From Callorhinchus milii (taxonomy: Eukaryota), in assembly GCF_018977255.1 (NCBI RefSeq), contig NW_024704742.1:5272001-5336000 (forward strand): DNA of 64,000 nucleotides. The letters are read 5' to 3'. A program made the position numbers and the translations under genes. Shown piece by piece: positions 6,072-55,928 of the stretch (position 1 is its first letter; the number at the start of each line of letters is the position of its first letter). The notes beneath the pieces were generated by a model. That model saw only the letters and a list, made by a program, of their open reading frames with translations, was not told where the DNA came from and searched no databases.

Positions 6072-6372
6072 GCATAATAATAATAAATGATCCTTGCATT
6101 TGATATAGCGCCTGATTGCGTCTTCGAGACGTCTCAAAGCGCTTCACGGAATATACTGTAAAGCGAATCGACTGTATGTTTTATTTTTAAAAGGAACTAT
6201 TACCCCCGGAAAAGCAATCCGCCAATCGACTAACAACCAGGTTCCTACTTACTGCTGGTAAACAGAGGCGTGTGGAGTAAGGAAACTCGCCCGAGGTTTT
6301 GCCCTGCCGGGAATCGAACCCAGGTCTCTCGCTTGCAAGGTGAACGCTCTCACCACTGAGCTACAAGCCTCC
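6072..6372 (-). mobile_element. tRNA-headed SINE (long subfamily) inserted in L2
   Basis: A/B-box head, gtgataagg-like tail and (ATT)n end. Confidence 0.85.
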
Positions 6373-7439
6373 ATCTACATCAACCAGATGAAGCCAACCA
6401 ACTGCTGCCTTGACCCTCTCCCCACCCAGCTTCTGGGCACTCAACCAGTCCCTCTCCTCAGGCTCCATCCCACTCCCCCTCAAAACCACTCACCTTCTTG
6501 AAAAACCTACCCTCGATCCCTCCAACCTGACAAACTTCAGAGCCTCTCAAACCTACCCTTTTGGAACTCGTTGCAAATCAACTTCACTCAAACCTCTCCC
6601 TCCATTCCCTACTGGAACCCTTCTAGTCCGATTTTTGCCCGGCCCACAGCACAGAGATAGCGCTCGTCAAAGTATCAAATGACATCCACACTCCAGGGCT
6701 CCCTCTGCCTCCTCATCCTCCTGGATCTCTCCGGCACATTCGACACAGTCGATCACGCCATCCTCCTCCACCATCTCTCCTCCCTCATCCACCTTAGTGG
6801 GACCGCACTCGGATGGTTCGAGTCCTGCTTAACTAACCGCCAACAATGCATCTCGGCAAATGGTTTCTCCTCCTGCCCGGAAACCTGCAGAGTACCCCAA
6901 GGCTCCATTCTTTGGGCCCCTTCTTTTCCTTATCTACACGCTCCCTCTCAGCAATGTCATCCACTGATATGGGGTCAACTTCCACATGTATGCGGATGAC
7001 ACCCAAATCTACTCCTCCTCCAGCTGTGACTCCCATGTCCTGTCAGCTTGTTTGACGGGCATCAAAGCCTGGATAAGCACAAGTTTCCTGCAGCTGAATG
7101 TCGGCAAGACGGAAGCGGTGCTCGTTGGCTCCCCGTCAACGTCTTCTCTCCTGCAGGTCTGAACTCCTCAACCTCCCCGGGCTCTCCCTCAGACTCTCCA
7201 AACCCACGCGCAACTTAGGCGTCAGGTTAATCCCCAGCTTTCCTTTCTACCCCACCCCGGTTCCCTGATCAGCACCGCTGTTTTCCAGCTCTATCACATT
7301 GCCCGCTTCCGACGGAAACTCACAACAAAAGCAGCCGAAAACCCTTGTACACGCCTTTGTCACTTCCCGGCTGGACCATTCCAATGCCCTCCTCGCTGGT
7401 CTCCCCAGCTCCACCGAACACAAAATTAAATTCCCACCC

Positions 7440-22158: not shown

Positions 22159-22325
22159 TTACAACTGTGTCGCAAAATAAGGACGGCCATCATCCTCCAG
22201 GCGTCGCGTCAAGATTTCACAGCCAGTCTCTGTGACCAGCAGGGTGTGCTCAAATTGTGCGGAACGCTTGCCATCTTTAGTTACAGCAGTCCAACCATCT
22301 GGCCAGGTCTCATCGTGCCACGCTC
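22159..22325 (-). CDS. METAP1: Methionine aminopeptidase 1, last coding exon (exon 11)
   Basis: Translates (G)[54 protein letters not shown]; acceptor actacag; contains the metal-ligand motif QFEHT. Confidence 0.97.
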
Positions 22326-22766
22326 CTGTAGTTAAAATAAACACTCAAGTCACTTCCTCATAGCCGTTCAACCCACTACCTACTTGGATCATTTCTGTAC
22401 TATTTCACAAGGACCATTTGATTCTCCTGTCTTTTCGCCCATAAAATACACAGTCAGTTCACTTTAGAGTGTTTTGCTGTGAAGCGTTTTGAGACGTCTC
22501 GAAGACGTGATAAGGCGCTACATCAAATGATTATTGCTATTATTTCACCTCCTGATGCTGCCACGAGTTAGTGAGTGTGTTCTCACTTAGTGAGAACATT
22601 CAGGCTAATCGGGTTAATATTTCATTGTACAAAGTGAAACTGTGTTGGCTTTACATGTTTCATTTAACCTGACAAACATTCAAAAGCAGACCTCTCTAGA
22701 TTTCCACTGGCCTTCCTGACTGTACACGTTAACTGAATTCTGTAAAACATGCAATTTGTATCTTAC

Positions 22767-22832
22767 CTTCACAAATCATAGGTTCAATTGTAAAGATGTG
22801 ACCTGCCTTCATCACTCCAACAGCTTTATTTT
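22767..22832 (-). CDS. METAP1: METAP1 exon 10 (66 nt)
   Basis: (K)[21 protein letters not shown]; acceptor tttatag, donor gtaaga; phases fit neighbouring exons. Confidence 0.97.
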
Positions 22833-23915
22833 CTATAAAGAAAGAAATGTGGCAGGAAGAGTACACCCTATTAGGCGCAAATCACTGAATTTTTCATTAC
22901 ATCGTCAAACCGCCCAAAGAAGTAGAACGCCAAACAGAAACGTCCAAGACCAAAATATACCACAGAGGAAGACAACATTGTGAGCTCCTGATCTGTGTTG
23001 GTTTGTATCCAGTCAGACAGAAATCCACATACGTGGGCTCCCATTACATGCAAATTTCCCATTTCTGGAATGGAATGCGCACTCCATCACTGGAGAAACA
23101 CAGCAAATTATGGACAGGATTAGGCTTAGGAAATGGACTACCAAAACCGCCAAAGAGGGTTGCCTTGATTCTGGCATTCCGTTGTCAAGCATATGAACTA
23201 CGACAGTCTCAAAAAGGGAAGTTAAAAAAAAAAACAGGCTATCAAACTCCCTGCAAACTTCCTGAAATGTGTGACAGCATTGCTGCTATTCTCCTGCCCA
23301 CAGCTCAGGCACACATCCTTGAACATCAGACGATGATTTGACTAGTTGGAATTGCGGAGTTTTGAGCAGCAGCTGCTGTTTCCACATTCCAAGGGGACAC
23401 CTGGATATGAGTGAGTGTTCACAAACACAGACTCCAGGTGAATCCTTCCTGCAGTCGTCTCAACTCTCAAGATTTGCTCAGCACCTACTGAACAAACACT
23501 GCCTTGCTGTATGGTGGTGGACCTATAGTGGACACCAGGTGACATGTCAGCCACCTAGTCCAATGCTCAGAGGGGAGCTGGTGCACTGAGATTAGGCACC
23601 ATATGGAGAAAAATGGAGCGACAACAGATCATACTCAGACCATACATTCAGAAGCATTAAAGCTCTAAGCCTGGGAATGGCTTCTAAAGAAGGAAAAAAA
23701 ACAAAGCTGAGCTAACGGCTGTTATAGTTGATAGGTGACATGGAATTATTGATAATGAGACATGATCAAGACTAATACACAAAAAATGCTGTTTGCGGAC
23801 ATACAATCACTGAATGTAACACTTATTTTTAGATTGAGACGAAAAAAACATTGGAGGGTGCTATAAATCATTAAACTTCATTTCATCTGTATAGGTTTTG
23901 AAACGGGTTGCTTAC

Positions 23916-24059
23916 TTGCGTAATGTGGCACATTAGGTGCAGTGTGGAAAAGTCGGTGGATCCCATGGCCACAATAACTTCGGACAACTGAAAATCCATT
24001 TGCGTGTGCGTGCTTCTGAATGATATTCCCCAACTCCCTGTACCGAATACCTGGCTTTA
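23916..24059 (-). CDS. METAP1: METAP1 exon 9 (144 nt)
   Basis: (V)[47 protein letters not shown]; acceptor tttgcag, donor gtaagc. Confidence 0.97.
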
Positions 24060-24716
24060 CTGCAAAGAGTAATATTTAACCCAACAAGTTATTCCAATTG
24101 TTTCACTTTAACAAGATTACCAAAAAGTGAACTAAAGCTAGTTCACTTTAATACATCAATACCCAGGCCCAATATATGTATATAATATAATATAATATAT
24201 AATATGCATTGCCACTCAGGATGCAGTGACAAATAGAAGCAGCAGGATAATGGGACTTTGTTATGTGGGCGCATTGTTGTAGTGGGGTAAAGTCTGCAGC
24301 ACTTCCCAACTATCTTTGGAATTATGTCAATATCTTTCATAAAAGTAGAGTGAATAATAACAGCACTCCACTTATTAAGTCTGTAATAAAGCACAATTTA
24401 CTGATCTTTTACACTGATAAGATTTTTGTACAACAATAATAATAATTCTGTTCAGTTTTGAGTTAACTGAATTGTCAGGGCAAAAGAACACAATTTGCAA
24501 TTTACTAACTGATCCCAGAACAGTCTGGATGAACAATTTATCTCATTCCGCAGGTGTAAGAACATATGAAATGGAGCATTGTTTCAATGATATCACAATC
24601 TTTCTCTTTCATATCAGTGGCAAATCAAACACGGGGGGAGAAACAGTATAATTTTTTTAAAAATAGTCAAGCTAACTGCATTCTAGTTATGTACTTGGCA
24701 CTCAAGGCCCACTCAC

Positions 24717-24848
24717 CTGAATCAATAGCATGCATAAGGCATTCAAATGTTGTCTGAACCAGTTTCTTTGCTCCTTCATCGATTTCTCCGACAAAAAAGG
24801 TCTCATTTAAATCACCATGAAAACCATTTCGGTAAACTGTAATATCCA
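24717..24848 (-). CDS. METAP1: METAP1 exon 8 (132 nt)
   Basis: (V)[43 protein letters not shown]; acceptor ttacag, donor gtgagt. Confidence 0.97.
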
Positions 24849-25194
24849 CTGTAATCAAAGAAAGCAGAGTTTCAGACATAATGTTTTATCGTTTGAAAAA
24901 GTAATGCTCTGGTTGTGGTAAGTTTAGGGCACTTAAGAGAGAGACTGCAAGAGTAAGAGCTCCTGTTAGTGTACAAGGGTTGTACGAACTGTACGAACCT
25001 TGTTAGGTAGAAAGATAAGGCTTCAGTCAGAACATACAGCGATGATTTAAAATTCTGCAACAATGTATTTGCCACTTCTGTCAAACTACGTAATAATGCC
25101 ATTTGAGAAATGAGTTAATCTGAATAAAAGGTGATTTGTAGTATAATTCAGAGACATTTAATATCGGATTCATTTATACATTTAGTATAATACC

Positions 25195-25557
25195 TTGTAG
25201 GTCAAGAGGACATCCCAAAGCGCTTCACAAGATATACGGTAAAGTGCAGCGACTCTGTATTTTGTAGGTGAAATACGGCAGCTAATTACACAGAGCAATG
25301 TCCCACAGTCATGGCGCGAATGTTCAATTTTATTTGGCCGATTGTTGGCCAGGACACTGGGAGAAAATCCCTTCTCTCTTCAAATAGTCCCAAGGAGATC
25401 TTCAACATCAAACCCAAACAGGCAGACGGGATCTCGGATTAACATCTCATCCGAAGGATAGTATCTCCGACAATGCAGCACAGCCCCAGCATTGCATTTC
25501 AGTGCCATTTTAAACTAGCCCCAAAACAGAGCTCGACGCCACCATCTTCTGACTCAG
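25195..25557 (-). mobile_element. Deu-domain SINE (SacSINE1/AmnSINE1-like), degenerate
   Basis: Reverse complement contains tgcattgtcggaga...ttcggatgagatgttaatccgag...gtgtcctggccaa. Confidence 0.7.
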
Positions 25558-25994
25558 ACATGACATACTTAAATACTTCAATAATGATTTAACTATCTTA
25601 CAATATTCTTCCAGAACAATTGCTTCAAATATACACAATTATGACTTGCCTGGGTTTATATTAAATCACCACTAGATTTTTAGCATGATGGCTTTATAGA
25701 TTGCTTGGTCTTTGCTGCCATGGTTGATAAAGCCACATCAACCGTACAATTCAAAAGAAAATGAAACGAACAGCCCCCAGTAAATGGAACAAAATCATGC
25801 TGTCTGTTTAGTGTTTAGCGAGTCAAGTTGCAGTAATTTGGCAAAGCAATCCATGCCAAACAGCAGAGAGGATTTTTTTTAATAGAAAACTCTGTTCTCT
25901 GGTGAACTCTTCACCCAATCAAAACCAGATTATTTTGGTCTTAATTGGGAATAATAATCTGCAATCGTGTTGCAATATATTAAATTGCCGAATT

Positions 25995-26335
25995 CCACCT
26001 TTCTCTCAAGCCCCACATCAGGCTTTCAGCCTATAGTCTCGGCTGATACTCCAATGATGTGCTGCATCGTTGGAAGTGCTGACCTTCGGATGAGATGATA
26101 GACTGGGGTGCTGTCTGGATGTTCAGATGGACAACAAAAATTCCATGGCACTATGTGAAAAGAGAAGGGAGTTCTGCTGGTGTTCTAGCAATAATTCCCC
26201 AGAAACAAATGGGTCTTTTATTCATGGCTGTTTGTGGGAAATAGCCGTGCGCAGATTGGTTGCTTCACTGCCTATAAACAAGTCATTAAACTTTACACTA
26301 AACGCTGTGAAGCTTTGTGATATTTTGATGTGATA
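25995..26335 (+). mobile_element. Deu-domain SINE, degenerate
   Basis: gtgctgcatcgttggaagtgctgaccttcggatgagatg...catggcactatgtgaa...ctgtttgtggga. Confidence 0.65.
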
Positions 26336-26485
26336 AATCAATAGTAGTAGTTTTTTTCACTACTTTACAATACTGTTCATGGTCACGACCCGTACTTTCT
26401 GGTTGACAGGACAAATACTTTGCTAGTAGTCTTTTAACATCTAACATACTCAGAGCAAACCGGAAAGACCGTTTTTCTTCATTTA

Positions 26486-26665
<180 letters not shown>

Positions 26666-27197
26666 TTAACTGCACAGCCATTTAAAAAATATATAAATTA
26701 CCGTTTCCGATATGTAATTACAGATTACAAAACCTATTGCCCCAGTCGCAAGTCTTACTTCAACCTTCGTGGATGCACATCTCTAACTTGCGGAGCCCGT
26801 TCTGACTCCTTGATGTACTGTTACAACCCCACAAGCATACTCGCTTTCACTCAGTTTCCCCTCACCTCTGCAATATTGCACCCCTCCACCACTACTTGAT
26901 CTCTACCCCTAAGCCGCCAAGATGTCTGCGCGTGCCAACGGCTCTGGGTCTGCTTGAGGGATTCTCTAGGTCTTTCTTCCCTGCATAGACTGCAGACTAC
27001 AACAACTTCGAAAACAACAAGTTGCATTTATACAGCGTCCTCCATGCAGTGCAGTGTTCCAGCGCAGCAACTATCCTGAACTTGTAAATTACTAAGCCGA
27101 GGCTAACAACATGCTCATCCCAAATTACTTCCTCCACAGATGTACTTGTGTTTCAGATTTTTTTTAAGAAAGCAAAAAAAAAAGGAACAGTTCTTAC

Positions 27198-27281
27198 CAG
27201 ATGAACGGCATGATCAATCTCTTCTGTTGTGACCCCTGGCCTCACCATCATTGAAGCCACATCTAATACTTCCCTGGCAAG
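27198..27281 (-). CDS. METAP1: METAP1 exon 6 (84 nt)
   Basis: [28 protein letters not shown]; acceptor tttccag, donor gtaaga. Confidence 0.97.
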
Positions 27282-27829
27282 CTGGAAAAGAAATAAGTTA
27301 AGTTTAAAAAAAACACACATTGTAAATTTAAACAACATGAACCACAGCAAAGGTAGAAAAATGGTGCTTCAATCGTCATAGAATGCAGCAGTTTCAATGT
27401 TCTCTTTACTAAAATATAGATGGGTTTTCTCAAGTTTTATTTCGATTTAATATTTATGAATAGCTATATATGACCAATAAAACAGAATTGAGAAAGAGTC
27501 GGGGGGCAAAATGGACAGGATAGTTCCTACATCATGTCCCTACAGAATGCTTGCTTTTAAATAAGAAGGTGAATTACCACAGGCTATACTCTCACACACC
27601 ACACAGCACCCAACTCAGGAAAAACAGCTGTCCACTTGGCTAGTGAATGTTGTGAAATATAGGCGTCCAAAAGAGCTGCTAAATGACATACTCCCTCTAA
27701 AAACATCCCTGAACTGACATATTTCAGCCACTTTATAAGCCATATTGTTTTATCAGAGGAACGGTAACTCTTTGCACGGTTCAAACATTAGTTATAATTA
27801 TATATAATATTCCTTGCATTGGATATATA

Positions 27830-28190
27830 ATGAAATATAATAATAATCCTTGCATTTGATATTGTGCCTTATCACGTCTTCAGGACGCCTCAAAATGCTT
27901 CACAGAATATACTGTAAAGTAAATTCACTGTATATTTTGTGGGCGAAACACAGCAGCCAATGGCACACAGCAGTGTCTCACAAACAGTTGTGGATTGAAG
28001 TGACAATTTTTTTTAAAAAGGAATTATTACCCCCCGCAAAAGCGATCTGCCAATTGACTAACAACCGGATTCCTACTTAGCGCTAAGTAAACAGAGGCTT
28101 GTGGGGTAAGGAAACTTGCCCAACATTTCGCCTTGGCAGGAATCAAACCCAGGTCTCTCGCTTGCAAAGGCGAGTGCTCTAACGACAGGA
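27830..28190 (-). mobile_element. tRNA-headed SINE (long subfamily) in METAP1 intron 5
   Basis: Similar to the 12993 copy. Confidence 0.85.
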
Positions 28191-28651
28191 TGTTATCACA
28201 TTGTGGCGAAGTCTCAAAAGCGCTTCACAGGACATACTGTAAAGTGGATTGACAGTGTATAATGTGTGCAATTTGCCAATTTGTGCTCAGCAATGCTTAC
28301 CAACAGCCTTGAAGCGAACGAACCATCTTATTTGGGAGATGGTTGGCCAGCACACTGGGAGAAACTCAGCAACCTGTTCATGGCCCCCATCCACCCCACT
28401 CCACCATCCCCAGTCTATTATGAATTCCAAGTCCCGACTTGGGGTTTGAACCCCCACAATCTTGAATCAAGAGTGCTATCAAGTGAGCACGGCTGACACA
28501 CACATTTAATTAATGTACACTGGTCTGTAGAGGATTAGTGACTCGTTACAGATTCCAGCAGTCACAGTGGGATGTAAATCCGGTTTTCTTCCAAGACAAA
28601 CACAGTGATAGACGGCAGAAACAATAAAAATGAACCAAACTTGAATCTCAC

Positions 28652-28743
28652 TCTGCATACTAGCCGCATTGCGTCTATGTCTTCCGCTGGCAGAACTTTG
28701 ATCTGCGACGTCCCCTTTAAGGACTGCTCGGATTCAGACACAC
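28652..28743 (-). CDS. METAP1: METAP1 exon 5 (92 nt)
   Basis: (G)[30 protein letters not shown]; acceptor ctttaag, donor gtgaga. Confidence 0.95.
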
Positions 28744-29204
28744 CTTAAAGGATCAAAGAATAATATGAATACACTTTTAAAAAGTTTCAATATTTTTAAA
28801 ATTCCTTTTTTTCCATGTCACATGCAACTTAGCACTAGTTGAAAAAAAGCGGAGCCGGGGGTGGGGGGAGAGGCTGTCGAGGCTGCTGACAGTGTTATAC
28901 CTGACAAAGAAGATACACAAGGTGGCTTGGGTAGACATGACATTCAAAAGCCAGTGGGAAATCATCTGTGACATAGTGTGCAATGCTCTGACAGAGAGAT
29001 AGGGAACTCACCACTTAACCCGTTTCCCACAGCGCATGAAACGTGCATTAGTACTCACTGACACAGAAATGAATGATAAAATCAATCCTGTGAATTATCA
29101 GCAGCCACATTTCTAATTTTAGCGCCTCATGCATATATAATATTTTGTTCAACACAAGTGATTGTCTGTGAAAATGTATCATGTGATGGCAAATGGTAGG
29201 TTAC

Positions 29205-29265
29205 CTAATGGATGATCTGCATAATCAGGCCACTGGACATAACTTGGCACAAGCCTCATGGGACT
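29205..29265 (-). CDS. METAP1: METAP1 exon 4 (61 nt)
   Basis: SPMRLVPSYVQWPDYADHPL; acceptor cctttag, donor gtaacc. Confidence 0.95.
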
Positions 29266-30231
29266 CTAAAGGAAAAAAAATAAGGTCTGTTATAATTTCC
29301 TACAAGCAGACAGTTACGTTTAAATTCTAAGCTAAAAATCCACTTCTCCTGTCAAGAATAATCTGATTCACCTTTTATACTCAGCTATTCAACAGTTTAT
29401 TACTGAAAATACAGTGAAATTCAGTTAACGGAATATCGGATAATTGAACAGTTCGGTTTGTTCAATAGAATTTAGAGCTCCAGGAGATAAGTCGCCTGCT
29501 ATGTTTAGTCGGGTTATATTGAATAATTTCTGCTGTCAAAATGAGAATTCAATTAACAGAATTTCACTGTACATGAAATCATGACAGATAGTAAAACCAG
29601 CCGTGACCAGAATGAAATAAACAGCATATCGCTCAAATCTTCCTGCTGAGCAATATTCAAGATCCTTCCATGGCCTCACCCCACACTCTCTCTGTGACGT
29701 CCCACAGCCCTACTGCCCTGACCGCTCCCTCCGCTCAGCAGCAGCCCGCTTCACGTCCTCTGCCCAATCTGCCTCATCGATCAAGCATTCCCCATTCTGC
29801 CCGCTACCTCTGCAACACTATCTCAGAGCCACTCTGCCTCCACTTCTCTCTCTCTCTCTCTCCACTCTTAATGCCTGCCTTAAGGCTCACCTTTACAACC
29901 ATTCTTTCAGTCACCTTCTATCTCCCCCCCCCCACCCCCTCAGTTTCAGCTCCCAGTTAGTTGTGTGAAGCACTTTTAGATGACATCCCAAAGTGAAAAG
30001 CACTACATTGAAGGTGAATTGTTGTTGACGTTGCTCAAGGTGATACCAACAGAATGATAACAACAGAAAGCCCTGTTCTATAGGTGCAACCACCACCTAA
30101 CAGGCAGGTTCAGAACTGATGGAATAAGGTCATCAAACAGACCATCAGCCACCCCCAACTCCACTGATAACAATAAAATGCTGAGATACGTTTTCTGGTA
30201 CAATGGTCATCTCCACTCCCTCAAATCCCAA

Positions 30232-31490
30232 ACCTGACTGCTCGAGTGCAGATGGTACAAACCCAGCCTCACGGTTCACCGCCAGCTACCACTGCTCCCT
30301 CTCGCAAACCAAAACTGCATTCTTTTCGCAGGTCATTCCGGAGGCCAAAAACACCAACGACATCCTGTTCTCCACCGCCCACAATCTCCTCTGCGTGCCC
30401 CATCGAGTACCCGCAATCCTAACATCAAATGCCAAGTGCAAAGAGGACTTGGGATTTATTTATCTCCAAGCTAGATAAAATCAGCCTGGCCACCTCCTCC
30501 TCCTGCCCCATGTACCCCAACACCACCCCCATTCCTTATCCGTTACCCAATCCTCCTCCCACGGCTCCTCCTATCACGGGCCCCAACCTACACTCCTTTG
30601 ACCCCATCTCTCCTTCCTCCCTCTCATCTTCCATCACCCAGATGAAACCCACCACCTGCTGCCTCGACCTTTCTCCCCAGCCAGCTGCTGGTCGCTCAAC
30701 TCCACCTCCTCTTCCCACTGCTGGCAGACATGATAGAATTAGTCCCTCTCCTCAGGCTCCATCCCACACCCATTCAAAACAGCTGACATCAAGCCCCCTC
30801 CTTAAAAAAAAACCACTCTCGATCCCTTCAACCTCACTGCTGTCCCATTTCAAACCTGACCCTCCTGGCCAAAGTCCTGAAACACATTGCTGCAAACCAA
30901 CTTTGTTCATACCTCGCCTACTCGAACCCCTCCAGGTCAGTTTATGCCCAGCCCACACCACAGAGACAGTCCTCGTCAAAAGTAACAAACGTCATCCTCT
31001 CTCTCTCCCTGACCAGGGCTCCCTCTGCCTCCTCGTCCTCCTGAACCTCTCCACTGCGTTCGACAGAGTCGATCATGTCATCCTCCTCCACCGCCTCTTC
31101 TACCTCACCCACATTACTGGGACTACATTCCCTTGCACCTCCTTACCTTTCTCACCTACTTATCCCCCAATCCACCACCCAATTCCTCCGCTCGACTGGC
31201 TCTGGCCTCCTATTTGTCCCTTGTGACCTCCATTCCACCATCTGTGGCCATGCCTTCAACCATTATGCCCCGAAACTCTAGAACTCTCTTCTCAATCCCT
31301 CCGCTTTGCGCCTCACTCCCCACCTTCAAATCCCGCTTAAAGACCTTCCTTTTTGATTGTGCTTACGGACACCTACTCCTCCCTCTGGCTCGTTGTCAGA
31401 CTCCGCCACAGTAAAGCTCTCCGGGACACTACATTGCGAATAAGGTATTCGCGTGAAGGGCGCTATATAAATGTAAGTTGCTGTTGTTTC
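30232..31490 (+). mobile_element. Internally deleted L2 in METAP1 intron 3
   Basis: LLNLSTAFDRVDHVILLHRL, FKSRLKTFLFD and an L2-type tail. Confidence 0.88.
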
Positions 31491-31665
31491 TGTACCATCA
31501 TCAGTTATTCGTTTCAAAAAATAAATGTTTATTTTTGTTAACCATAAAATTTTAACATATAACAAGCTCCAAGTATCCAAAGCCTTATGTATTATTTCAA
31601 AATAGGTGATGATGTTATGCATTTGCTTGCTTTGTCAGAGTATATGCAGACAGTACTTCACTTAC

Positions 31666-31775
31666 CAATGGGTAATATGGCCTAAGTTTGCCTGTGTATC
31701 GATAGCCAGGCCAAGGATCCATATTAATTTCATCCTTAATAGACTTAGAATTTTCTTCTTTAGGTTTTTCATTTT
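31666..31775 (-). CDS. METAP1: METAP1 exon 3 (110 nt)
   Basis: (K)[36 protein letters not shown]; acceptor attgcag, donor gtaagt. Confidence 0.95.
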
Positions 31776-31819
31776 CTGCAATAACAAAAAAAATCAGTTC
31801 ACAATCTTGTTAAAGTATT

Positions 31820-32225
31820 TGATAATAATAATACTGTATATTTGGTATAGCACCTTTCACGTCAGGACAATGTCCCAAAGTGCTTCGCATAATATACTCT
31901 AAAGTGCAATGACTGTATGTTCTGTGGGCGAATGTGGCAGCCAACTTGCACACAGCAATGTCCCCAAAACAGCCATGAATTGAATGACCAATTTTATTTG
32001 GGGGGATTGTCGGCCAGAACACCAGAAGAAACCCCTTCTCTTTTCAAATAGTGCCATGATATCTTGAACACCCAGCTGAACAGGCAGAGGAGGTCTCGGT
32101 TTAACATTTCATCTGAAGGGAGGCATATCCAATGATGCAGCGCTCTTCCAGCACTGCACTGGAGCCTCAGCCTTGACTAGACTATATGGGTTTCAAGTCC
32201 CCGATGTGGGGCTTGAACACACAAC
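31820..32225 (-). mobile_element. Deu-domain SINE in METAP1 intron 2
   Basis: Deu core and 3' module on the minus strand. Confidence 0.7.
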
Positions 32226-33062
32226 TTGGGTACTTCTGATTCACTTACTCTTCATTGTACTGTTTTACTGTCCGAAATTCATTGGTTGAACAAATCTAAT
32301 ACAACCTATTTAATTTGGACTATTGTTCTTAGACAATCAAATTCCAATGCTAAAAGCTCACATTTTGCTCTGGCGTTTTGAACACTGAAGTCATCCTACA
32401 TTAAGAAGACAAATCTTCTGAGCTTTTTTCTGCAACTCTCTAGACAGGCAACTGTGAATCGTTAGCAACCCGAGACTTGGCAAATGATCTCACTGCTGTG
32501 TATGTAGAGTATAAGATAACAAGCGCCATCTCCTGCACTCTCCTCAGACAATTTTTTTTTTACTGATCGACTCCCGAGGCCTTAGTTGCCCAATCTGTGA
32601 AGTTTTGGGTTTTCTTGGCACTGGTCTTGGTGTGTTGTTTACACATTACTAAAATAGGGTTACTCCTTTATCAGAGTTCATTTAACAGCTCAGTTGGTAA
32701 AGTCCCATCTACAGTGAAACTGCTATTTAAACCATACTGATAGGTCGTAGGCTCAATTTCCAGCTTGGGCTGAATTGAGTGATCTATGCTGGGCTAGCTT
32801 TTCATCTCTGAATGCGATTACCAATCTGTATAGATCAAGATCCATCATTTTGGATGAGACTGAATAAACCAATTTCAAATGGGAGCTTTCTTGTAAGGAG
32901 AGTTCGTACACAATTTAAATGCACATCCCTGAGACAAAAATCACTGTGTACCACCACCTAATTGCCTAATTTCCCAGGCTGTGCAATCTGAAGATCAGCT
33001 TGGTACAAGCTCATCGTTTAAAAGAAACAATTAAATGTTTTGGTTTTAAAAATAATACTTAC

Positions 33063-33114
33063 TAGCGTTTTTATGAAGAAGCTTGTGAGTTGACCAGCTC
33101 CCTTTGAAGCATTC
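33063..33114 (-). CDS. METAP1: METAP1 exon 2 (52 nt), second half of the N-terminal zinc finger; exon 1 not found
   Basis: ECFKGSWSTHKLLHKNA; acceptor ctgcag, donor gtaagt. Confidence 0.95.
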
Positions 33115-33521
33115 CTGCAGATGCAAATTTGAGAAAAAGTACAATTAGTACACCTGAATATATGAGGTACACAAAATAACAGGACAGATAGCTCTGTACT
33201 AAATTTGATTCAAAGTATAAACTCACTGGTTGTTCAGCTTTAATTATATTTGACAAGATAACCAGCCAGCCCTTATGTTTGGAAAACATAAATGTATATC
33301 ACTTTAGGTTGAGGTTCAAAAAAATTATACCCATCTAAGCTTCAGTTTAGGAGAATACAAAACAGAATCCAAATCCCAACAATGCTAAACCTCACACGAG
33401 TCTTGAAAAACTTTTAATGCAACTTCCCCGACTAGTGATGGCGCCTGGCAATTAAGCACACAAGCCAGATTGCTACCTAAAGTTTACATTTTAGACTACT
33501 TTAAAGCCAATACTGAATTAT

Positions 33522-33836
33522 TGGAGTCCTGTAGCTCAGTGGTTAGAGCGTTCGCTTTGCAAGCGAGAGACCTGAGTTCAATTCCAGGCAGAGGGCCAAA
33601 CCTTGGGCAAGTTTCCTTACTCCACACAGAGCCTAATAATAATCCCTTCAAAAAAAAATAATAATAGTAATCCTATCATTCAATCTACGACTGTTTGTGG
33701 GGCACTGTGCGCAATTGGCTGCTGAGTTTTGCCCACAAAAATACAGTCAATTTACTTTACATTACACTCTGTGAAGTGCTGTTAGACGTGTGGAAGATGT
33801 GATAAGGCACTATATCAAATACAAGGAATATTATTA
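33522..33836 (+). mobile_element. Chimeric tRNA-headed SINE (short-subfamily 5' half, long-subfamily 3' half)
   Basis: 5' half matches the 47012 copy; 3' half has the agacgt...gtgataagg tail of the 12993 type. Confidence 0.8.
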
Positions 33837-33972
33837 CAATTTTTAAAAACGTGTTATAGATTTCGAAAGTTTTTCTGATGTATTTGTTTCTCGAGAAATA
33901 TCATTCTTTATTGTACTGAAATGATGGAACTGTGTTTAATTGGTTACTAATACTGTGCAATTCTGGTTACAG

Positions 33973-34068
33973 ATGGGCACTTTGGTTCTTCAAAAATGAC
34001 AAAAACAAAACTTGGCAAGCTAATCTGCGTCTGATATCCAAATTTGATACAGTGGAAGACTTTTGGGC
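33973..34068 (+). CDS. EIF4E: Eukaryotic translation initiation factor 4E (class I), exon 3 (96 nt); exons 1-2 not found
   Basis: (R)WALWFFKNDKNKTWQANLRLISKFDTVEDFW(A); acceptor gttacag, donor gtaagt; synteny with METAP1 and TSPAN5 points to the EIF4E1A orthologue. Confidence 0.96.
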
Positions 34069-35091
34069 GTAAGTAGAAACACAAAATAAGTGAGAAGAGT
34101 ATTTGTTTAAAAATATATATTTTCTGATTTGGTTTCTCTTATGCAAGCGCGCAACATTCTGGAATCGAGAAGGCACTTTCCTGTTGACGGTGCATAACAG
34201 GAATACAGAATGAATGACCCTTTGCCTATCATTGCCCATGTTCTTTTGCTGTTCTTCTCTTTACTCCCCCCCCCCCCCCCCCCCTCTAACCTTCTGTAGC
34301 TCAATTTACTAAATTGAGTTATTATTCTTTATAACCAATTTTATGGATGTGAAGAATGCTTTGGCATTCAGAATTGGTTTTCCAATGTTGGTTAGAATTG
34401 TAATTTTGGTTGAACTTGTTTTCTGCTGTTGTATCTTTATCAGTTTGATTTTGACACGATTGGCACGATTGACACGATTCTCATTTCGCTTTCTTAAGCT
34501 AAATTGCATTGCCTGGAGGGCAAATACAATGAAGGACATATCACATCTTCAGATAGCACACTTTCTAAAATTATCCTTATTCTTTTTGACAAAATTGACC
34601 ATTCAACTTCCATGCTGACTTTGGAAAAACATTTGTATTGTAATAAAGGTTTTTCCATGACAAAATAGCAATAATATCATCATTACCCCCATGCAATTAG
34701 AATACCTGAAACAAATTAAAATATACCTTCAACACTTTTGTTTCAACTGTTGTCCGGCTACCTACTTTGCATTAAGAGTTCGTTATTTTGAATGTTTCTT
34801 TTTGTTCCTCATTTCTATTTTCTATTTTGTATTCCTGAGCTTGACTTTAAAGCTTTTAAACAGTTGAACTGTAACCAGGTTGCATTGAGATCATGGCACA
34901 CAATCCTGAAACTTTCTGAGTTCTTCTATCACTACAAAACTGGAACTGCTTTATTGCGTCAAATGTTCAGTATAAATCTCATAATAGAGGTGTAAAGAAA
35001 TGTTGAAATAATTTTAAATAGACATGGATTTTTTAATGTGCAATGGTTACCCCCATGTATTCTGACTACTCATGTTTTCTTCACCTCACAG

Positions 35092-35155
35092 ACTTTACAA
35101 TCATATACAACTCTGCAGTAATTTAATATCGGGCTGCGATTACTCTCTCTTTAAG
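35092..35155 (+). CDS. EIF4E: EIF4E exon 4 (64 nt)
   Basis: LYNHIQLCSNLISGCDYSLFK; acceptor tcacag, donor gtaagt. Confidence 0.97.
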
Positions 35156-36227
35156 GTAAGTAAGATAAATGCTTCAGTGTTTTTTTTTTAAATTACGCTG
35201 TTTATTTAAAAATGGAAAAATTTGGCCTGAGAAAAGCTCATTTGAGGAGGGAAAGTTTATTGAATTCCTAGTTCCATAAAAAATGAAGTGTGAATTTCAA
35301 CTACACCAGAGATTGACCTTGTGTCCCATTGTCTGTGAGATAGTGTTGAAGCCATTGCACCAAAAACTCCCATTTAAAACAAATATTTTAGGCTTCTTTA
35401 ATAAGTAGTGATTTTGAAGGAGGTAAACTTCATGAAGTGCAAATCAGAACATTTTGATCTTTACTGTGAGGACCTGGGATTATAAAACCAGTTTTGCAAG
35501 ACAATTGTATTTTTGATTGTTTCTTAATTCCCCTCGGAGTTCCGATTTGGTGTCAACTGTATTGGCGATATATCCATTTCTGACACAGAACCAGTATTTT
35601 TCAATTCACAAAGATGCTTCTGTTCTGTTAGATTCAAAAATAAATTCTAACAAATGACTGTTTAAAGAGAATACTTAATCAATTACTTTAAGATCTCCTG
35701 TTTTTCAAATTCTGCACTGAGCATCAAAAAGCCATTTTAGGACCTTTACAAACAAAGGTGACAAAGCCACTTTGTACACATAGAACTGAATAAGGCTTAC
35801 ATAAGAACATAAGATACGAAAGACGAAAAAATACCAAAGTCCCATCTAGTTATCCTTCCACCTTCCTGGCAGTCGCACGCACACATGTCCCAAACTACCC
35901 AGCTTACATTTCCACTCTGATTTTGTTTGAACTTGGATCAATTTAATTTGCACTGGTACATCACCCAAACAAATATAATTAGACTTGTCCATTTTCCCTG
36001 CTAAAATAAATATCGATACATGGATTATATTTTAAAAATATAATTAATTTTTAAACTCTCAATGTAAAATACATTTCCCAAGGGTCCTGCAATACAATCA
36101 GCCCGTGATTATAAATGCATAATATCCTAAGCTTTTATTCACCGAGCGTTAACTTAGACATAATTGCAGTATTCTTCAAATCTTGTTGTAAATAGGTTGA
36201 ATGTGCTTAAATGTCTACTTTGTGTAG

Positions 36228-36341
36228 GACGGTATTGAACCTATGTGGGAGGATGAGAAAAATAAACGTGGTGGGAGATGGCTGCTCACCCTTTCTAAGC
36301 AACAAAGAAAAACTGATCTGGATCGTATTTGGTTAGAAACT
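36228..36341 (+). CDS. EIF4E: EIF4E exon 5 (114 nt)
   Basis: DGIEPMWEDEKNKRGGRWLLTLSKQQRKTDLDRIWLET with the cap-binding WE pair; acceptor gtgtag, donor gtaagt. Confidence 0.97.
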
Positions 36342-37312
36342 GTAAGTATTTTTCCTCCTTTTCAGAAAATGAACGACATTCGGATGTTGCTTTGAGCTCA
36401 TGTTCTAGGCTTGACCATCCTCCAGTACAGTGCTGCACTGTCGGAGGTGCTGTGCTTCGGATGAAACGCACGTTCAACCGAGCAACAGTTCTCCAGGGAA
36501 AAAAAGAGTAGTATTGCTGTAGTTAACCACTAGAAGGCGCATTGAAACCTTTCAGAGTTAACTTGGCAAATTGTCGTTTTTTTCTCCCGACTGGGCCAGC
36601 CAGAGACCAGAGACTGCACAAACACAATGCTACCCGGACACTCTGGGACTCTTTTATTAGCGAGGAGGATCAACCTTTCACACCAAACGAATGATTAGAG
36701 GATAGAACTGTGATGATGAATCTGAAGAAGCGATAGAATCCATTTTGGATCTAAGTCAGGCTTCAGTGCAAACTTGTGCATTTTCTATCATATATGTTTT
36801 TCTTTATTGTTTAACTGTAGTTTGCTTGTAATTAGACGCTGGGATCTATTTCTTCATCCTTCCAGCCCCCTCATTCCTTCTCTCTTCTCTTCCCCCCCCC
36901 ACCCCCCGCCCGCCCGCCCGCCCGATGCAGATCGAGATCCAGAACTAGGTCTTTTCTGCAATTGGAAACCAAAGCGTTACAGTGGCCATTTGACAGTGGG
37001 GGTTGGGGGAAGAGAAGAACATTTTTTAAAATCAATAATAGTGGCAAAACATTTGTTTAAAAAAACACAGCTGCAGCTTCCCAAGGGCTCAGTATCAGTT
37101 TATTTATTAATTTATTTAGTTGAACTTGGCCTGGAATAGTGGCAGTGCAACAAGTGGCATTTACACCCAGAGCTTGGAAGGGGAAAATCAGTCACAGTTA
37201 CTACTCCCAATCATTAATCAATGGCCCCCTGTTTTCCATTCCCTCGGCACTCAGTTTTAAAGTTGTAAAATGTGACCTACACTTAAGTTTTTATCCTTTC
37301 ACTCCCCTGCAG

Positions 37313-37452
37313 CTACTGTGCCTTATAGGAGAAGCATTTGACGAGCACAGTGATGACGCATGTGGTGCAGTAGTTAATGTTAGAAACAAAGGTGACAAAA
37401 TAGCTATATGGACTACTGATTGTGAAAATAGAGAATCTATCACATATATAGG
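37313..37452 (+). CDS. EIF4E: EIF4E exon 6 (140 nt)
   Basis: LLCLIGEAFDEHSDDACGAVVNVRNKGDKIAIWTTDCENRESITYI(G); acceptor cctgcag, donor gtaagt. Confidence 0.97.
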
Positions 37453-37811
37453 GTAAGTGAATCACTTGATACCCCTTAGACTTTATATAGTTGTCAAAGC
37501 AGAACTTTCGAGTGCAGTGAATAACAGCTTGCATAAAACATTCCCAACCCGTGATCCTCATCACACTGCTGGTTTGCAAAGTCTTCCCCGTGAATGGAAT
37601 TTTGTGCTTTTTTTTCCCCCGCCCTCTTTGCAGATGCAAGTTTAGCATTTTGATTAGATGTTTTCACATAATAATAATATAATAATCCTTGCATTTGATA
37701 TAGAGCTTTTCGTGTCTTCTAGATGTCTCAAAGCGCTTCACAGAATATAGTGTAAGGTGAATTGACTGGATATTTGTGGGCGAAACTTGGCAGCCAATTA
37801 CGCACAGCAGT

Positions 37812-38284
37812 CTGTCTTCCCAACTCTTACCTCCACAAGATGCAGATTATCGAGAACTCTGCAACTCTTATCCTCTCCTGCACTGAACTCTGTGAACCTA
37901 TCAGCCTCATCCTCGCCCGGCTCCCCATTCTCTCTGAGGATCGAGTTCAGAATCCTCGTCTTCGCTTTCAAAACCCTCCACGGCCTTGCTTCTCCCCATA
38001 TCTCCCTCCGCTCAGCAGACGTCCCCCGCCTTGCTTGCCCCATCTTCAGCCTTACTGCCCTCATTCTTTGGAACTCCATTCCATAGTCCCTTTGCCTCAG
38101 CCCCCTCCTTTCATAGCCCTCATCAAGATCTTCCTCTTTGACCGTGCCTTCGGTCACCCTCCTGCCCCCACCCTCCACCCCTCCTGATCCCAACCCCCAG
38201 CTTGGGTGCAAATCCTTGAATGTCCAGCGCCTTGGGACCTCCTCCGGACGTGAAATGCACTGTACAAATGTAATTTGTTGTTGT
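37812..38284 (+). mobile_element. L2 3' fragment in the last EIF4E intron
   Basis: LHKMQIIENSA...IKIFLFDRAFGHP and tail with (TTG)n. Confidence 0.85.
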
Positions 38285-38603
38285 ATTTGACCACTGAGCA
38301 AACAAGTGCTTCAAGTTAGGCTCAAAATCCAGTCATAAAATTGCCCCCGTTTCTGTACAATTGGCAAAATTCATCACATTTAGAGGTTGAGAGTAAATTA
38401 AATGCTTAGGTATCCATCTTTCTTGTTCTTTGAACGTACTGTCATTCAACCCAACATTGTAATTTGTTTTTAACTTAATCAGCTCTGTCACTGCTGAAAG
38501 TAATTGATTTCCTGTTATCTGGAAACTTGTGGTAATTAAGGAAAGACTGAGTATTGAATTTGTTGAACTAACCTTTTCTTTGTCCTTTTCCTCTTGTCAA
38601 CAG

Positions 38604-38718
38604 GAGAATTTATAAGGAAAGATTAGGTCTCCCTCCTAAGGTAGTGATTGGCTACCAGTCGCATACAGACACTGCCACAAAAAGTGGATCAACGACCAAG
38701 AATAAGTATGTTGTTTGA
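38604..38718 (+). CDS. EIF4E: EIF4E last coding exon (exon 7, 115 nt)
   Basis: RIYKERLGLPPKVVIGYQSHTDTATKSGSTTKNKYVV*; acceptor caacag; retains the KSGS phosphorylation motif. Confidence 0.97.
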
Positions 38719-44247: not shown

Positions 44248-46559
44248 CTAATTCTTATGTTCTTATATTCTTAAATATTCAGAGTCTAGACATATCCTTA
44301 GATTTTTATTGGGTTTCTCCACTCAGACTCCATCACGGGCTCCATCACTGGCAGTGCAGAGCTCAGCCACACAGACAAGCCACGTTAATCACAGTTTGTA
44401 ACTGCTCCGTTTTCTCCAGTGTCTCATTTAGCCTGGGATTCACCTGGGATTCCCGCTCCCCGCATGTTGCGTGAATCACCGGTTTCACATCAACTTTCAA
44501 TTTAATTGTGAATTCTCCTTTAATTGAACCCATTTCCCCTAACAGCTCGTGACTTTCTTCAATTATTTAACCATCTTCTCCCTTTTTGGTGCTGGTTCTA
44601 CCGCTTTTAACCAACCTCGTATTTGTTATTATATCATATCGCCCACAAAATACACTCTACAATATATTCTTTGAGACGCCTCGATGATGTGATAAGGCGC
44701 CATATCAAATGCAAGGATTATTATCATCTCTTCTGTGATCTGAATATTGGTTCTCCATTAAATTTTACAACACAGAATTTTACCTGGTATAATTTGCGTT
44801 GTCTCCATAGTTAGTGTGACCTTAACTCCAGTGGCTAACCTTTCCCAACAATAGATGATCAGCCTCTCACATTTCTGTCCCCACCCCTCCCTGTGAGGTT
44901 GCCCTAACTTTTGATCAAAAGCAACAACAACTTGTATTTTGCTTGGTGCTGAATGACCTCATCTCAGTGCGGTGGGATCATTGCAGGGTATTAGGATATT
45001 TATTTGCCCCTGGAGTAAAGGGAGAAAAATTGCATTTTTGCAGCACTTTATCACCTTATCCTCCTGGATGGGTGGGGAAGGGGGCAGTTAAGCAGAGTCT
45101 GCTTCGAATTGAACTGACTCCAAGGTGACATGTTTAGCAATGGAGTGTCGGAATGAAGCTCACTCTCTGTATGGTCTCTGTAGTCCAGTTCCTGAGCCAG
45201 GTGGGTCCACAGTATTCCAGGGCACTGCTGATGACAGCACAGCCCAGCCTGGCTCATCAGCAAGACTTCGAAGGGCAGATCAGTCACTGGAGGTAGGGAA
45301 CCTTCCCGCTCAGCTCCTGTTAGCCCTGCAAGCCAAAGCCTTGGCTGCTCGGGTGGTCCTAGCTGGAACAAACAGCGGCAGTGCTCACGATGAACATGGA
45401 ATGGCGGAGCAGGCTCGAGGAGCAGAATGGTCTATTCCTACCCTTCTACGTGTCTATATCTGGGATTTCCATGTGTAGGTGGGGTGCAGGGAAATCTCAG
45501 CTTGGTTTGGATACTCTTAAGCACGGGGATGGGTTTCCCCACGTGTCAAGACACCCCCGGCTATCCTAAAAAAATTAATACCCATCTGGAAAGAAGCAAG
45601 CGATGAAAGACCTGCAAGGAATCCCACTCCTGATGGTGATCCAGCAATACAGCCCCTCCCTTGCCCGAACCCTCCCCCCCTCTCCCCCCCCCCTCAAAGT
45701 GGTTGGAAAGTGAACAAATGTAGGTGTTGAACAAGGACATGACTGGCTAGCCAGCAGGATAGTGAGGGACTATCGGGCACCAACACTCCGACACACACAC
45801 TAGATGCATTGGGCACTGTATAAATGTCCATGTATTAATCCAAGTTTGCTGTTGTAGTATTCCCGCAATGACCTCCAAAAGGACGAGGTACAAGTGGGTG
45901 AAAACGGGGCAAATGGCTCAAAACAAACTAGAAAAATATAAGTGCGCCTTCCAACCCTGTTGTATGAAACTTCTGCGCCACTGGGAGTGGAGTTAAACAG
46001 GAAAACGTGGCAGCCGGGACTTTAGAGGCAGCACTGAACAGCAAACCTGAGGAAATTAAAACATCTGGAAAGGCAATAATGTAGATAACATGGACAAGGA
46101 AAATGTGTACCTAAACAGCAGCCAAGGCTGTTAAGAATAAATCCCAGGAACATCATATACCGTGGGGGGGAAAAAAGCAACAAATGAAACTACTTGTATT
46201 TTCATAGCACCTTATCTCACAGTACTGCTCGGCCGAGAAACCGTTTTTGTTTGCAAAAGTAATAGATATTTGCACCAGCAAGATCCAACAAAGAACTTCT
46301 AGGTGACAGTTTGACTACTCTGGATGGATGTTGGCCAGGACAATTGGAAATGAGGAAGAGAAAAGAATATATTGTACATATATATTACTGCCAACAAATC
46401 CACTGCAAAGAGAAAGCTTAATGGAGATCCAGAATGGGCTTGTGAGTTTGGCTGCCTCGGTTGGTAGCACTCTCGCCTCTGAATCAGAAGGTTATGGGTT
46501 CAAACCCCATGTCAGAACTTTGACCTCACATAGTTCAGGCTGACACTCCAAAGTAGTGC

Positions 46560-46847
46560 ACTCACTTTGCAAGTGACAGACCTGAGTTCAATTCCAGGCA
46601 GAGGGCGAAACCTTGGGCAAGTTTCCTTACTCCACACAGAGCCCTAATAATAATCCCTCCAAAACCCAAAACAATAATAAATTGGTCAACGACTGTTTGT
46701 GGGACATTGCTGTGCGCAATTGGCTGCCGCGTTCGCCCACAAATATACAGTCAATTCACTTTACAGTGTGTTCTGTGAAGCGCTTTGGGACGTCCTCCCG
46801 ACGTGAAAAGCGCTATACCAAATGCAAGGATTATTATTATTATTACT
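46560..46847 (+). mobile_element. Short-subfamily SINE inserted in a Deu-domain SINE (host about 46435-47005)
   Basis: Near-identical to the 47012 copy; Deu sequence resumes at 46848. Confidence 0.85.
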
Positions 46848-47011: not shown

Positions 47012-47343
47012 TGGAGTCCTGTAGCTCAGTGGTTAGAGCACTCGCTTTGCAAGTGAGAGACCTGAGTTCAATTCCAGGCAGAGGGCGAAACCTTGGGCAA
47101 GTTTCCTTACTCCACACACAGCCTGATAATGATCCCTCCAAAAAAAACAAAAAACAATAATAAATTGGTCATTTTCAATCTACGACTGTTTGTGGGACAT
47201 TGCTGTGCGCAATTGGCTGCCGCGTTCGCCCACAAATATACAGTCAATTCACTTTACAGTCTATTCTGTGAAGCGCTTTGGGACGTCCTCCCGACGTGAA
47301 AAGCGCTATATCAAATGCAAGGATTATTATTATTATTATTATT
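47012..47343 (+). mobile_element. Full-length short-subfamily tRNA-headed SINE
   Basis: Intact A/B boxes, no central segment, gggacgtcctcccgacgtgaaaagcgc tail and (ATT)n. Confidence 0.92.
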
Positions 47344-53682: not shown

Positions 53683-54436
53683 GTTTCCCATTCCCTCTCT
53701 CCCCCTTTTCCTTTCTCATTCCCTCTCTCCCACCTTTTTGTTTCTCATTCTCTCCCTCCGCCCTCTTTCTTTCTCATTCCCTCTTTCCCACCTCTTGTCC
53801 TTTCTCATTCCCTCTCTCCCTTTTCCTTTCTCATTCCCTCTCTCCCTTTTCCTTTCTCATTCCCTCTCTCCCTTTTCCTTTCTCATTCCCTCTCTCCCTC
53901 TTCCTTTCTCATTCCCTCTCTCCCTTTTCCTTTCTCATTCCCTCTCTCCCTTTTCCTTTCTCATTCCCTCTCTCCCCTTTTCCTTTCTCATTCCCTCTCT
54001 CCCTTTTCCTTTCTCATTCCCTCTCTCCCCTTTTCCTTTCTCATTCCCTCTCTCCCTTTTCCTTTCTCATTCCCTCTCTCCCCTTTTCCTTTCTCATTCC
54101 CTCTCTCCCTTTTCTTTCTCATTCCCTCTCTCCCCTTTTCCTTTCTCATTCCCTCTCTCCCTTTTCCTTTCTCATTCCCTCTCTCCCTTTTCTTTCTCAT
54201 TCCCTCTCTCCCCTTTTCTTTCTCATTCCCCCCTCTTGTCCTTTCTCATTCTTCCCCTCTTTTTCTTTCTCATTCCCTCTCCCTCTTCCTTTCTCATTCC
54301 CTCTCTCCCCCTTTTCCTTTCTCATTCCCTCTCCCTCTTCCTTTCTCATTCCCTCTCTCCCCCTTTTCCTTTCTCATTCTTCCCCTCTTTTTCTTTCTCA
54401 TTCCCTCTCTCCCTTTTCCTTTCTCATTCCCTCCCT
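53683..54436. repeat. Pyrimidine-rich tandem array, unit about 26-27 bp (ttttcctttctcattccctctctccc), roughly 28 copies
   Basis: Periodicity read directly from the sequence. Confidence 0.95.
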
Positions 54437-54498: not shown

Positions 54499-55410
54499 CA
54501 GTGGCTGTGGTGGGGGCTGTGTGTTGGATGGTGTCCCTCTCTCTGTGTGAGTGACTGTGAGTGGCTGTGGTGAGGGCTGTGTGTTGGATGGTGTCCCTCT
54601 CTCTGTGTGACTGTGAGTGGCTGTGGTGAGGGCTGTGTGTTGGATGGTGTCCCTCTCTCCCTCTCTCTCTCTGTGTGAGTGACTGTGAGTGAGTGTGAGG
54701 GCTGTGTGTTGGATGGTGTCCCTCTCTCTCTCTGTGTGAGTGACTGTGAGTGGCTGTGGTGAGGGCTGTGTGTTGGAAGGTGTCCCTCTCTCTCTCTCTC
54801 TCTGTGTGAGTGAGTGTGAGTGGCTGTGGTGAGGGCTGTGTGTTGGATGGTGTCCCTCTCTCTCTCTCTGTGTGAGTGAGTGAGTGTGAGTGGCTGTGGT
54901 GAGGGCTGTGTGTTGGATGGTGTCCCTCTCTCTCTCTCTGTGTGAGTGAGTGAGTGTGAGTGGCTGTGGTGAGGGCTGTGTGTTGGATGGTGTCCCTCTC
55001 CCTGTGTGAGTGACTGTGAGTGGCTGTGGTGAGGGCTGTGTGTTGGATGGTGTCCCTCTCTCTGTGTGAGTGACTGTGAGTGGCTGTGGTGAGGGCTGTG
55101 TGTTGGATGGTGTCCCTCTCTCTGTGTGAGTGACTGTGAGTGGCTGTGGTGAGGGCTGTGTGTTGGATGGTGTCCCTCTCCCTGTGTGAGTGACTGTGAG
55201 TGGCTGTGGTGAGGGCTGTGTGTTGGATGGTGTCCCTCTCTCTGTGTGAGTGAGTGTGAGTGGCTGTGGTGAGGGCTGTGTGTTGGATGGTGTCCCTCTC
55301 CCTCCCTCTCTCTGTGTGAGTGACTGTGAGTGGCTGTGGTGAGGGCTGTGTGTTGGATGGTGTCCCTCTCCCTCCCTCTCTCTGTGTGAGTGACTGTGAG
55401 TGGCTGTGGG
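54499..55410. repeat. Minisatellite, unit about 60 bp (length varies with internal CT/GAGT runs), about 14 copies plus a partial copy
   Basis: Unit tggctgtggtgagggctgtgtgttggatggtgtccctctctctgtgtgagtgactgtgag; exact 60-bp period over 54961-55260. Confidence 0.97.
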
Positions 55411-55847: not shown

Positions 55848-55928
55848 ATGTCAGGGAAACATTACAAAGGGCCTGAAGTCAGCTGCTGCATCAAGTATTT
55901 CATATTCGGATTTAATATCATCTTCTGG
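55848..55928 (+). CDS. TSPAN5: Tetraspanin 5, coding exon 1 (81 nt); remaining exons not seen in the window
   Basis: MSGKHYKGPEVSCCIKYFIFGFNIIFW followed by donor gtgagt; matches the TSPAN5 N-terminus and its expected position next to EIF4E. Confidence 0.95.

Follow-up and report, generated by a model that had tools for sequence, protein, structure and literature searches.

A hybrid SINE at the METAP1-EIF4E junction of Callorhinchus milii as the site of a probable assembly mis-join

In the DNA of Callorhinchus milii analysed here (64,000 nucleotides of contig NW_024704742.1 in assembly GCF_018977255.1, hereafter the window), the tRNA-headed SINE lying between METAP1 and EIF4E is a hybrid, in which a young front of a short subfamily meets, in register, an old tail of a long subfamily. 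The most likely origin of this hybrid, at a probability of about 0.7, is an assembly mis-join, that is, a false deletion, and a real deletion by recombination is ranked as less likely; all other explanations taken together are improbable. An earlier note on this DNA had proposed that two SINEs of the same orientation, one in an intron of each gene, were joined with loss of the sequence between them, either by homologous recombination or by an assembler. The joining and the loss are supported by the two halves of the hybrid and by the presence of the missing exons in other protein models from the same species. As to the choice that the note had left open, a loss fixed in the species can be ruled out, and assembly error is favoured over recombination.

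Table 1. Positions of the hybrid SINE, its parts, its reference copies and the adjoining gene segments in the window
Feature	Position	Strand	Evidence
METAP1 exons 3-11, intact, canonical AG/GT sites	22159..31775	-	
METAP1 exon 2, the first METAP1 exon in the window, encoding the second half of the zf-C6H2 zinc finger	33063..33114	-	X5 splice joint 31775-33063
METAP1 intron 1, 3' part, left unique flank	33115..33521	-	single contigs X1 32036-33545, X3 32254-33545
Hybrid tRNA-headed SINE, short-subfamily front and long-subfamily tail	33522..33836	+	alignment, diagnostic columns, age step
Young short-subfamily part: tRNA-like head (33526-33598), central segment absent, A-rich linker	33522..33686	+	
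Switch zone, most likely; best point 33723	33687..33727	+	change-point fit, adjacent differences merged
Old CpG-decayed long-subfamily tail	33728..33836	+	diagnostic columns, divergence, CpG count
Intron before EIF4E exon 3, 3' part, right unique flank	33837..33972	+	contigs X1 33809-35882, X2 33808-34252, X3 33827-34258
EIF4E exon 3, first EIF4E exon present; residues 42-74 of the 217-residue chain 1ipb_A	33973..34068	+	
EIF4E exons 4-7, intact	35092..38718	+	
Short-subfamily reference copy, 5'-truncated	46554..46839	+	
Short-subfamily reference copy, full length	47012..47332	+	

Subfamily letters and age step along the SINE

To place the SINE at 33522 among its relatives, 16 SINE copies or fragments from the window were aligned, of which two (47012 and 46554) are short and 13 others long-type or truncated. 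A column was taken as diagnostic where the two short copies carry the same letter and most of the long or truncated copies another; both subfamilies are thus defined from window copies only, and the short consensus is built on two of them. Between 33556 and 33633 the SINE is short-type in 10 of 11 diagnostic columns, and, as in the short copies, a central segment of about 60 bases is absent. Between 33784 and 33806 six of seven columns are long-type, one matches neither subfamily and none is short-type. The middle part is mixed: long-type letters occur at 33648, 33662 and 33727 (the last an extra T), the T at 33686 is shared with the copy at 47012, and the letters at 33644 and 33736 are short-like, although the same letters are also found in three long copies. 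Seven other copies in the window have both ends preserved, and none of them is a hybrid. No clear target-site duplication was found by eye around either this SINE or the short copy at 47012.

The two parts also differ in age, so that the copy is not uniformly old along its length. The head differs from the short consensus at 5/112 positions (4.5%), a distance like that between the two short copies (4/89, 3/69 and 3/103 differences), whereas the tail differs at 22/103 positions from the short consensus and at 16/105 (15%) from the long one. The latter value exceeds those of all 11 long or truncated window copies with a tail, which carry 3-12 differences per approximately 105 positions. Of the eight consensus CpGs from 33723 on, the hybrid keeps one and each of the short copies seven. 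The earlier note had described a short-subfamily 5' half and a more decayed, long-subfamily 3' half; both descriptions hold, all the motifs that it quoted lie where it placed them, and scoring the diagnostic positions along the copy against the subfamily consensus of window copies gives a short front followed by a long tail.

A change-point fit, with A-rich linker columns excluded from the divergence counts and adjacent differences merged, peaks at 33723, and positions 33687-33727 lie within 2 log units of the peak. With differences merged in this way, the change-point model is better than an all-short model by 7 log units and better than an all-long model by 20. Difference events number 9/182 before 33723 and 18/110 after it (Fisher p=0.0016, uncorrected for selection of the point). 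The fit thus agrees with the earlier placement of the switch in a shared block at 33690-33727, as a best estimate: the short consensus has two copies, the long-type letters at 33648 and 33662 precede the interval, and with unmerged differences 33704-33783 as well as 33645-33648 remain within 2 log units. A breakpoint in the preceding shared block, 33635-33666, is allowed by two letters and was rejected as 3.4 log units worse with merged differences.

The family is abundant, with 31 matches to its tail in the 64 kb. It is probably the elephant shark's major tRNA-derived SINE, which is listed as SINEX-1_CM/SINE2-1_CM in a table of PMC3747384 and described in PMC1845163. The window family resembles SINE2-1_CM in its tRNA-like head, its very high copy number and its species of origin, which make the label a likely one. 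ARAGORN calls a tRNA at the tRNA-like head of the hybrid, and Rfam RF00005 scores 40.7 bits there; a tRNA gene at this place was rejected, as all five ARAGORN calls in the window sit on SINE heads. Elsewhere, a long-subfamily copy on the minus strand (6075-6373) has an internal deletion running from its A-rich linker to the start of its tail.

Missing 5' ends of METAP1 and EIF4E

METAP1 runs leftwards and EIF4E rightwards, so that their 5' ends face each other, and only 858 bases separate the acceptor of METAP1 exon 2 from that of EIF4E exon 3. The hybrid SINE takes 315 of these; the 542 non-SINE bases between the genes have a GC content of 33%, contain six CpGs and include no CpG-rich, promoter-like sequence. 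METAP1 exon 1, EIF4E exon 2 and any promoter are absent, with no tblastn match to either exon in the 64-kb window, and neither tblastn nor a motif scan placed missing exons elsewhere in it, as after an inversion. EIF4E exon 1 is presumably missing as well, since shark and ray orthologues begin with a six-residue first exon. What is left of both genes is intact and spliced, with no decay. METAP1 exons 2-11 encode 348 of 348 residues identical to the METAP1 model P0031, and EIF4E exons 3-7 encode 175 of 175 residues to the stop identical to the eIF4E model P0015; in both genes every splice site is canonical and the reading frame is free of premature stops.

The missing exons are found in other data from the same species. 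The closest protein to the window's METAP1 is the Callorhinchus milii METAP1 model P0001, and METAP1 exon 1 is present in P0001, P0031 and P0033; the closest protein to EIF4E is P0015, also from Callorhinchus milii, which includes EIF4E exon 2. Wherever an exon is shared with P0031 or P0015, its identity to the window is 100%. P0001 and P0032 contain intron-derived residues that occur in the window, which indicates that these models were built on genomic sequence of the locus and that their exons lie in cis. The one RefSeq entry among the five cluster members, P0030, is labelled 'partial': it is truncated where METAP1 stops in the window, reads its first ten residues from window intron 1 and retains only positions 31-46 of the zf-C6H2 profile. 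In the 5' extension of P0031, the residues G, A, R, P and W make up 61%, versus 26% elsewhere, which hints indirectly at a GC-rich composition of the lost sequence. Among short protein fragments, 52 matches to the METAP1 exon 1-2-3 junction were obtained, the best at 75% identity, and none was from Callorhinchus milii.

Several further observations concern the locus and its neighbours. Differences and small gaps in the three DNA-like runs coincide with a 9-base tandem repeat at 34451-34479, which is either a polymorphic site or a local error of the window. Adjacent tandem arrays (53684-54433, with 26-base units, and 54500-55409, with 60/70-base units) lie between a CpG-rich stretch at 52-54 kb and a first coding exon at 55848, which resembles the start of TSPAN5; Pfam gave no match on its 27 residues. 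The gene order TSPAN5-EIF4E-METAP1 is conserved. In the sturgeon model P0013, an ADH-like N-terminal part (PF08240) is fused to an eIF4E that has no N-terminal exons, perhaps through a comparable error of assembly or annotation where synteny places the same genes; the ADH part has no match in the 64-kb window. A literature search, with supplements outside its reach, found no paper on the METAP1/EIF4E locus of Callorhinchus milii.

Sequencing-run contigs and the origin of the join

Four of the 24 listed sequencing runs (X1, X2, X3 and X5) were compared with the window as contigs. X1-X3, at about 900-960 million contig letters each, were treated as genomic on the basis of contig size and even intron coverage, and X5, although no listed run is recorded as RNA, as RNA on the basis of its splice joints. 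Contigs cover both unique flanks of the SINE (Table 1), with the listed X2 contigs on the left ending at 33413. By a 31-letter rule, the flanks are bridged up to 33514 on the left and from 33840 (X1) or 33858 (X3) on the right; if the animals behind these runs carry the intact locus, the break is therefore confined to 33515-33839 (X1) or 33515-33857 (X3) and falls within the SINE, independently of the subfamily analysis. A breakpoint outside the SINE, which the earlier note had named as evidence against its proposal, did not arise. Among the contigs listed (53,962 further pieces are unlisted, and the region is swamped by other SINE copies), none crosses 33627-33730 and none contradicts the join, which speaks neither for nor against it. 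Summed contig depth exceeds 1 million over the SINE head, versus about 7-15 in the unique flanks, and in X1-X3 the summed depth of the front is 13-15 times that of the tail, as expected if the front is young and the tail diverged.

In X5, splice joints lie exactly at METAP1 intron 2 (depth 191) and at EIF4E introns 3 and 4 (depth 215), while the introns have a depth of about 2-5. One X5 contig carries about 71-73 letters upstream of EIF4E exon 3, the last 30 of which, as shown, are open in frame; 71 loose letters were assigned to this contig by length (116+62+96+2+71=347). The window contains no match to a 16-letter probe taken from these upstream letters, even when two mismatches are allowed. 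Together, the joints and the upstream letters indicate that both genes were transcribed and spliced in the sample, EIF4E from DNA outside the window. The last 30 letters differ from the canonical end of EIF4E exon 2 (HPLQN), and no similar start occurs among the 15 listed members of the eIF4E cluster; in this one contig, they possibly represent an unannotated alternative or cassette exon within the missing segment.

Two contigs next to the join were observed to depart from the window. A low-depth X5 contig (33361-33521) fits the left flank to the last base before the SINE and is followed there by 30 letters with no fit to the window; it might come from an allele that lacks the young SINE, or the SINE head might have undergone RNA editing. 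An X1 contig of single-copy depth (33731-33838) differs from the window at 3/108 letters, compared with 17/2075 in the flank, which could stem from CpG decay that differs between alleles or from incomplete polishing around the join.

For the preferred explanation, an assembly mis-join, the following course is proposed. On the real chromosome, METAP1 and EIF4E would stand head to head; METAP1 intron 1 would contain a young SINE of the short subfamily, and the intron preceding EIF4E exon 3 an old one of the long subfamily, each on the plus strand. During overlap, gap closure or contig merging, the assembly would have taken these two copies as one in their common block at approximately 33687-33727, and their collapse would have produced the hybrid at the cost of METAP1 exon 1 and EIF4E exons 1-2, along with the promoter region. 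The young part of the hybrid would accordingly be the front of the METAP1 intron copy and the old tail the end of the EIF4E intron copy; we infer both parent copies, and likewise that the join is absent from the DNA of the source animal. The assembler is favoured on four grounds: both genes are expressed and show no damage, a second genomic model is intact, a double null allele should be rare and assemblies tend to lose 5' promoters. The region lost here is the 5' region of both genes, and the sequence that assemblies miss has been reported to come preferentially from GC-rich promoters and 5' exons (PMC9516821), a bias described there for Sanger and Illumina assemblies, with many of the missing regions lying in gaps. 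Against a mis-join stands the seamless join: it has no N gap, and the sole N in the window, at 20978, follows a T run. A 300-base repeat whose copies are about 15-20% apart in the tail is also a poor trap for a long-read assembler.

A real deletion by recombination between the two SINEs, heterozygous in the sequenced animal and with the deleted haplotype taken by the assembler, would leave the same trace but is judged unlikely. It could have arisen by single-strand annealing, template switch or unequal crossover between the directly oriented copies, and both the gapless join and the density of SINEs in the window agree with it. Knockout would be lethal, however, and an allele that silences two conserved housekeeping genes at once should be rare; none of the listed contigs shows the join. 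Alu/Alu deletions likewise leave a single chimeric element of full length, in register where the two sides meet (PMC6071635, PMC2041999), and the young front half suits the over-representation of young elements in such events (PMC6071635), but the chimpanzee study also dropped 258 of its 1,538 candidate loci against a better assembly (PMC2041999).

Far less probable still is a genuine single element, belonging to an intermediate subfamily or formed as a gene-conversion mosaic, whose position at the junction would be partly chance. In favour of such chance, the element fills more than a third of the bases in which the break must fall, and the two-copy short consensus and the two long-type letters before the best switch leave some room for a mixed element. 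An intermediate should, however, be evenly old, which the difference between head and tail contradicts, and the other two-ended window copies include no hybrid. Because the contigs leave no break outside the SINE, a join inside it would be required anyway, and neither an intermediate subfamily nor a conversion mosaic accounts for the age step or for the missing exons.

A deletion fixed in the species, leaving a dead duplicate or genes with new starts, is excluded: the flank-bridging contigs alone would fit an intact or a short-form animal alike and the X5 exon upstream of EIF4E exon 3 is not the canonical exon 2, but same-species models hold METAP1 exon 1 and EIF4E exon 2, the X5 upstream exon lies outside the window, the open reading frames are undamaged, contig depth is about equally low on the two flanks in three runs, and the bases between the genes offer no promoter-like sequence.

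Consequences and comparison with known systems

If the join is an artefact, two conserved genes have silently been deprived of their promoter and N-terminal exons in the sequence; the greater part of the zinc finger is gone from METAP1 and residues 1-41 from eIF4E, and the RefSeq METAP1 model already carries the same truncation. With no gap as a warning, studies of promoters, conserved elements or gene loss that use this slow-evolving outgroup would be misled. Subfamily-hybrid SINEs could then serve to flag hidden false deletions across the assembly without a reference. An artefact being likely, the case is worth a report to curators, and its biological interest is low. If the deletion is real, it would be a SINE-driven double-null allele in a cartilaginous fish, removing the promoter shared by METAP1 and EIF4E together with their first exons, and a natural rearrangement of the Alu/Alu kind between two tRNA-derived SINE subfamilies in a chimaera.

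Each of the two outcomes has known counterparts. The false gene losses described for vertebrate assemblies in PMC9516821 likewise remove the promoter and first exons of conserved genes beside repeats and leave 5'-partial models; those losses come from Sanger and Illumina assemblies and often lie in gaps, whereas the present one has no seam, is concealed within a hybrid SINE and is shared by two head-to-head genes. The present locus further matches false gene loss in that its missing sequence occurs in other data from the species and both genes are undamaged and transcribed. The hybrid also resembles the products of Alu/Alu-mediated rearrangements (PMC6071635) and Alu deletions (PMC2041999), in which a full-length chimeric SINE stands in register, its halves come from different subfamilies and the intervening sequence is lost. 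In those studies the junctions were mapped to the base or checked by PCR and the parents are known, while here the parents are deduced from the window sequence; in addition, the SINE here is tRNA-derived and Alu is 7SL-derived. The hybrid would work like an Alu/Alu deletion junction. Both outcomes are of known kinds, and neither is new biology.
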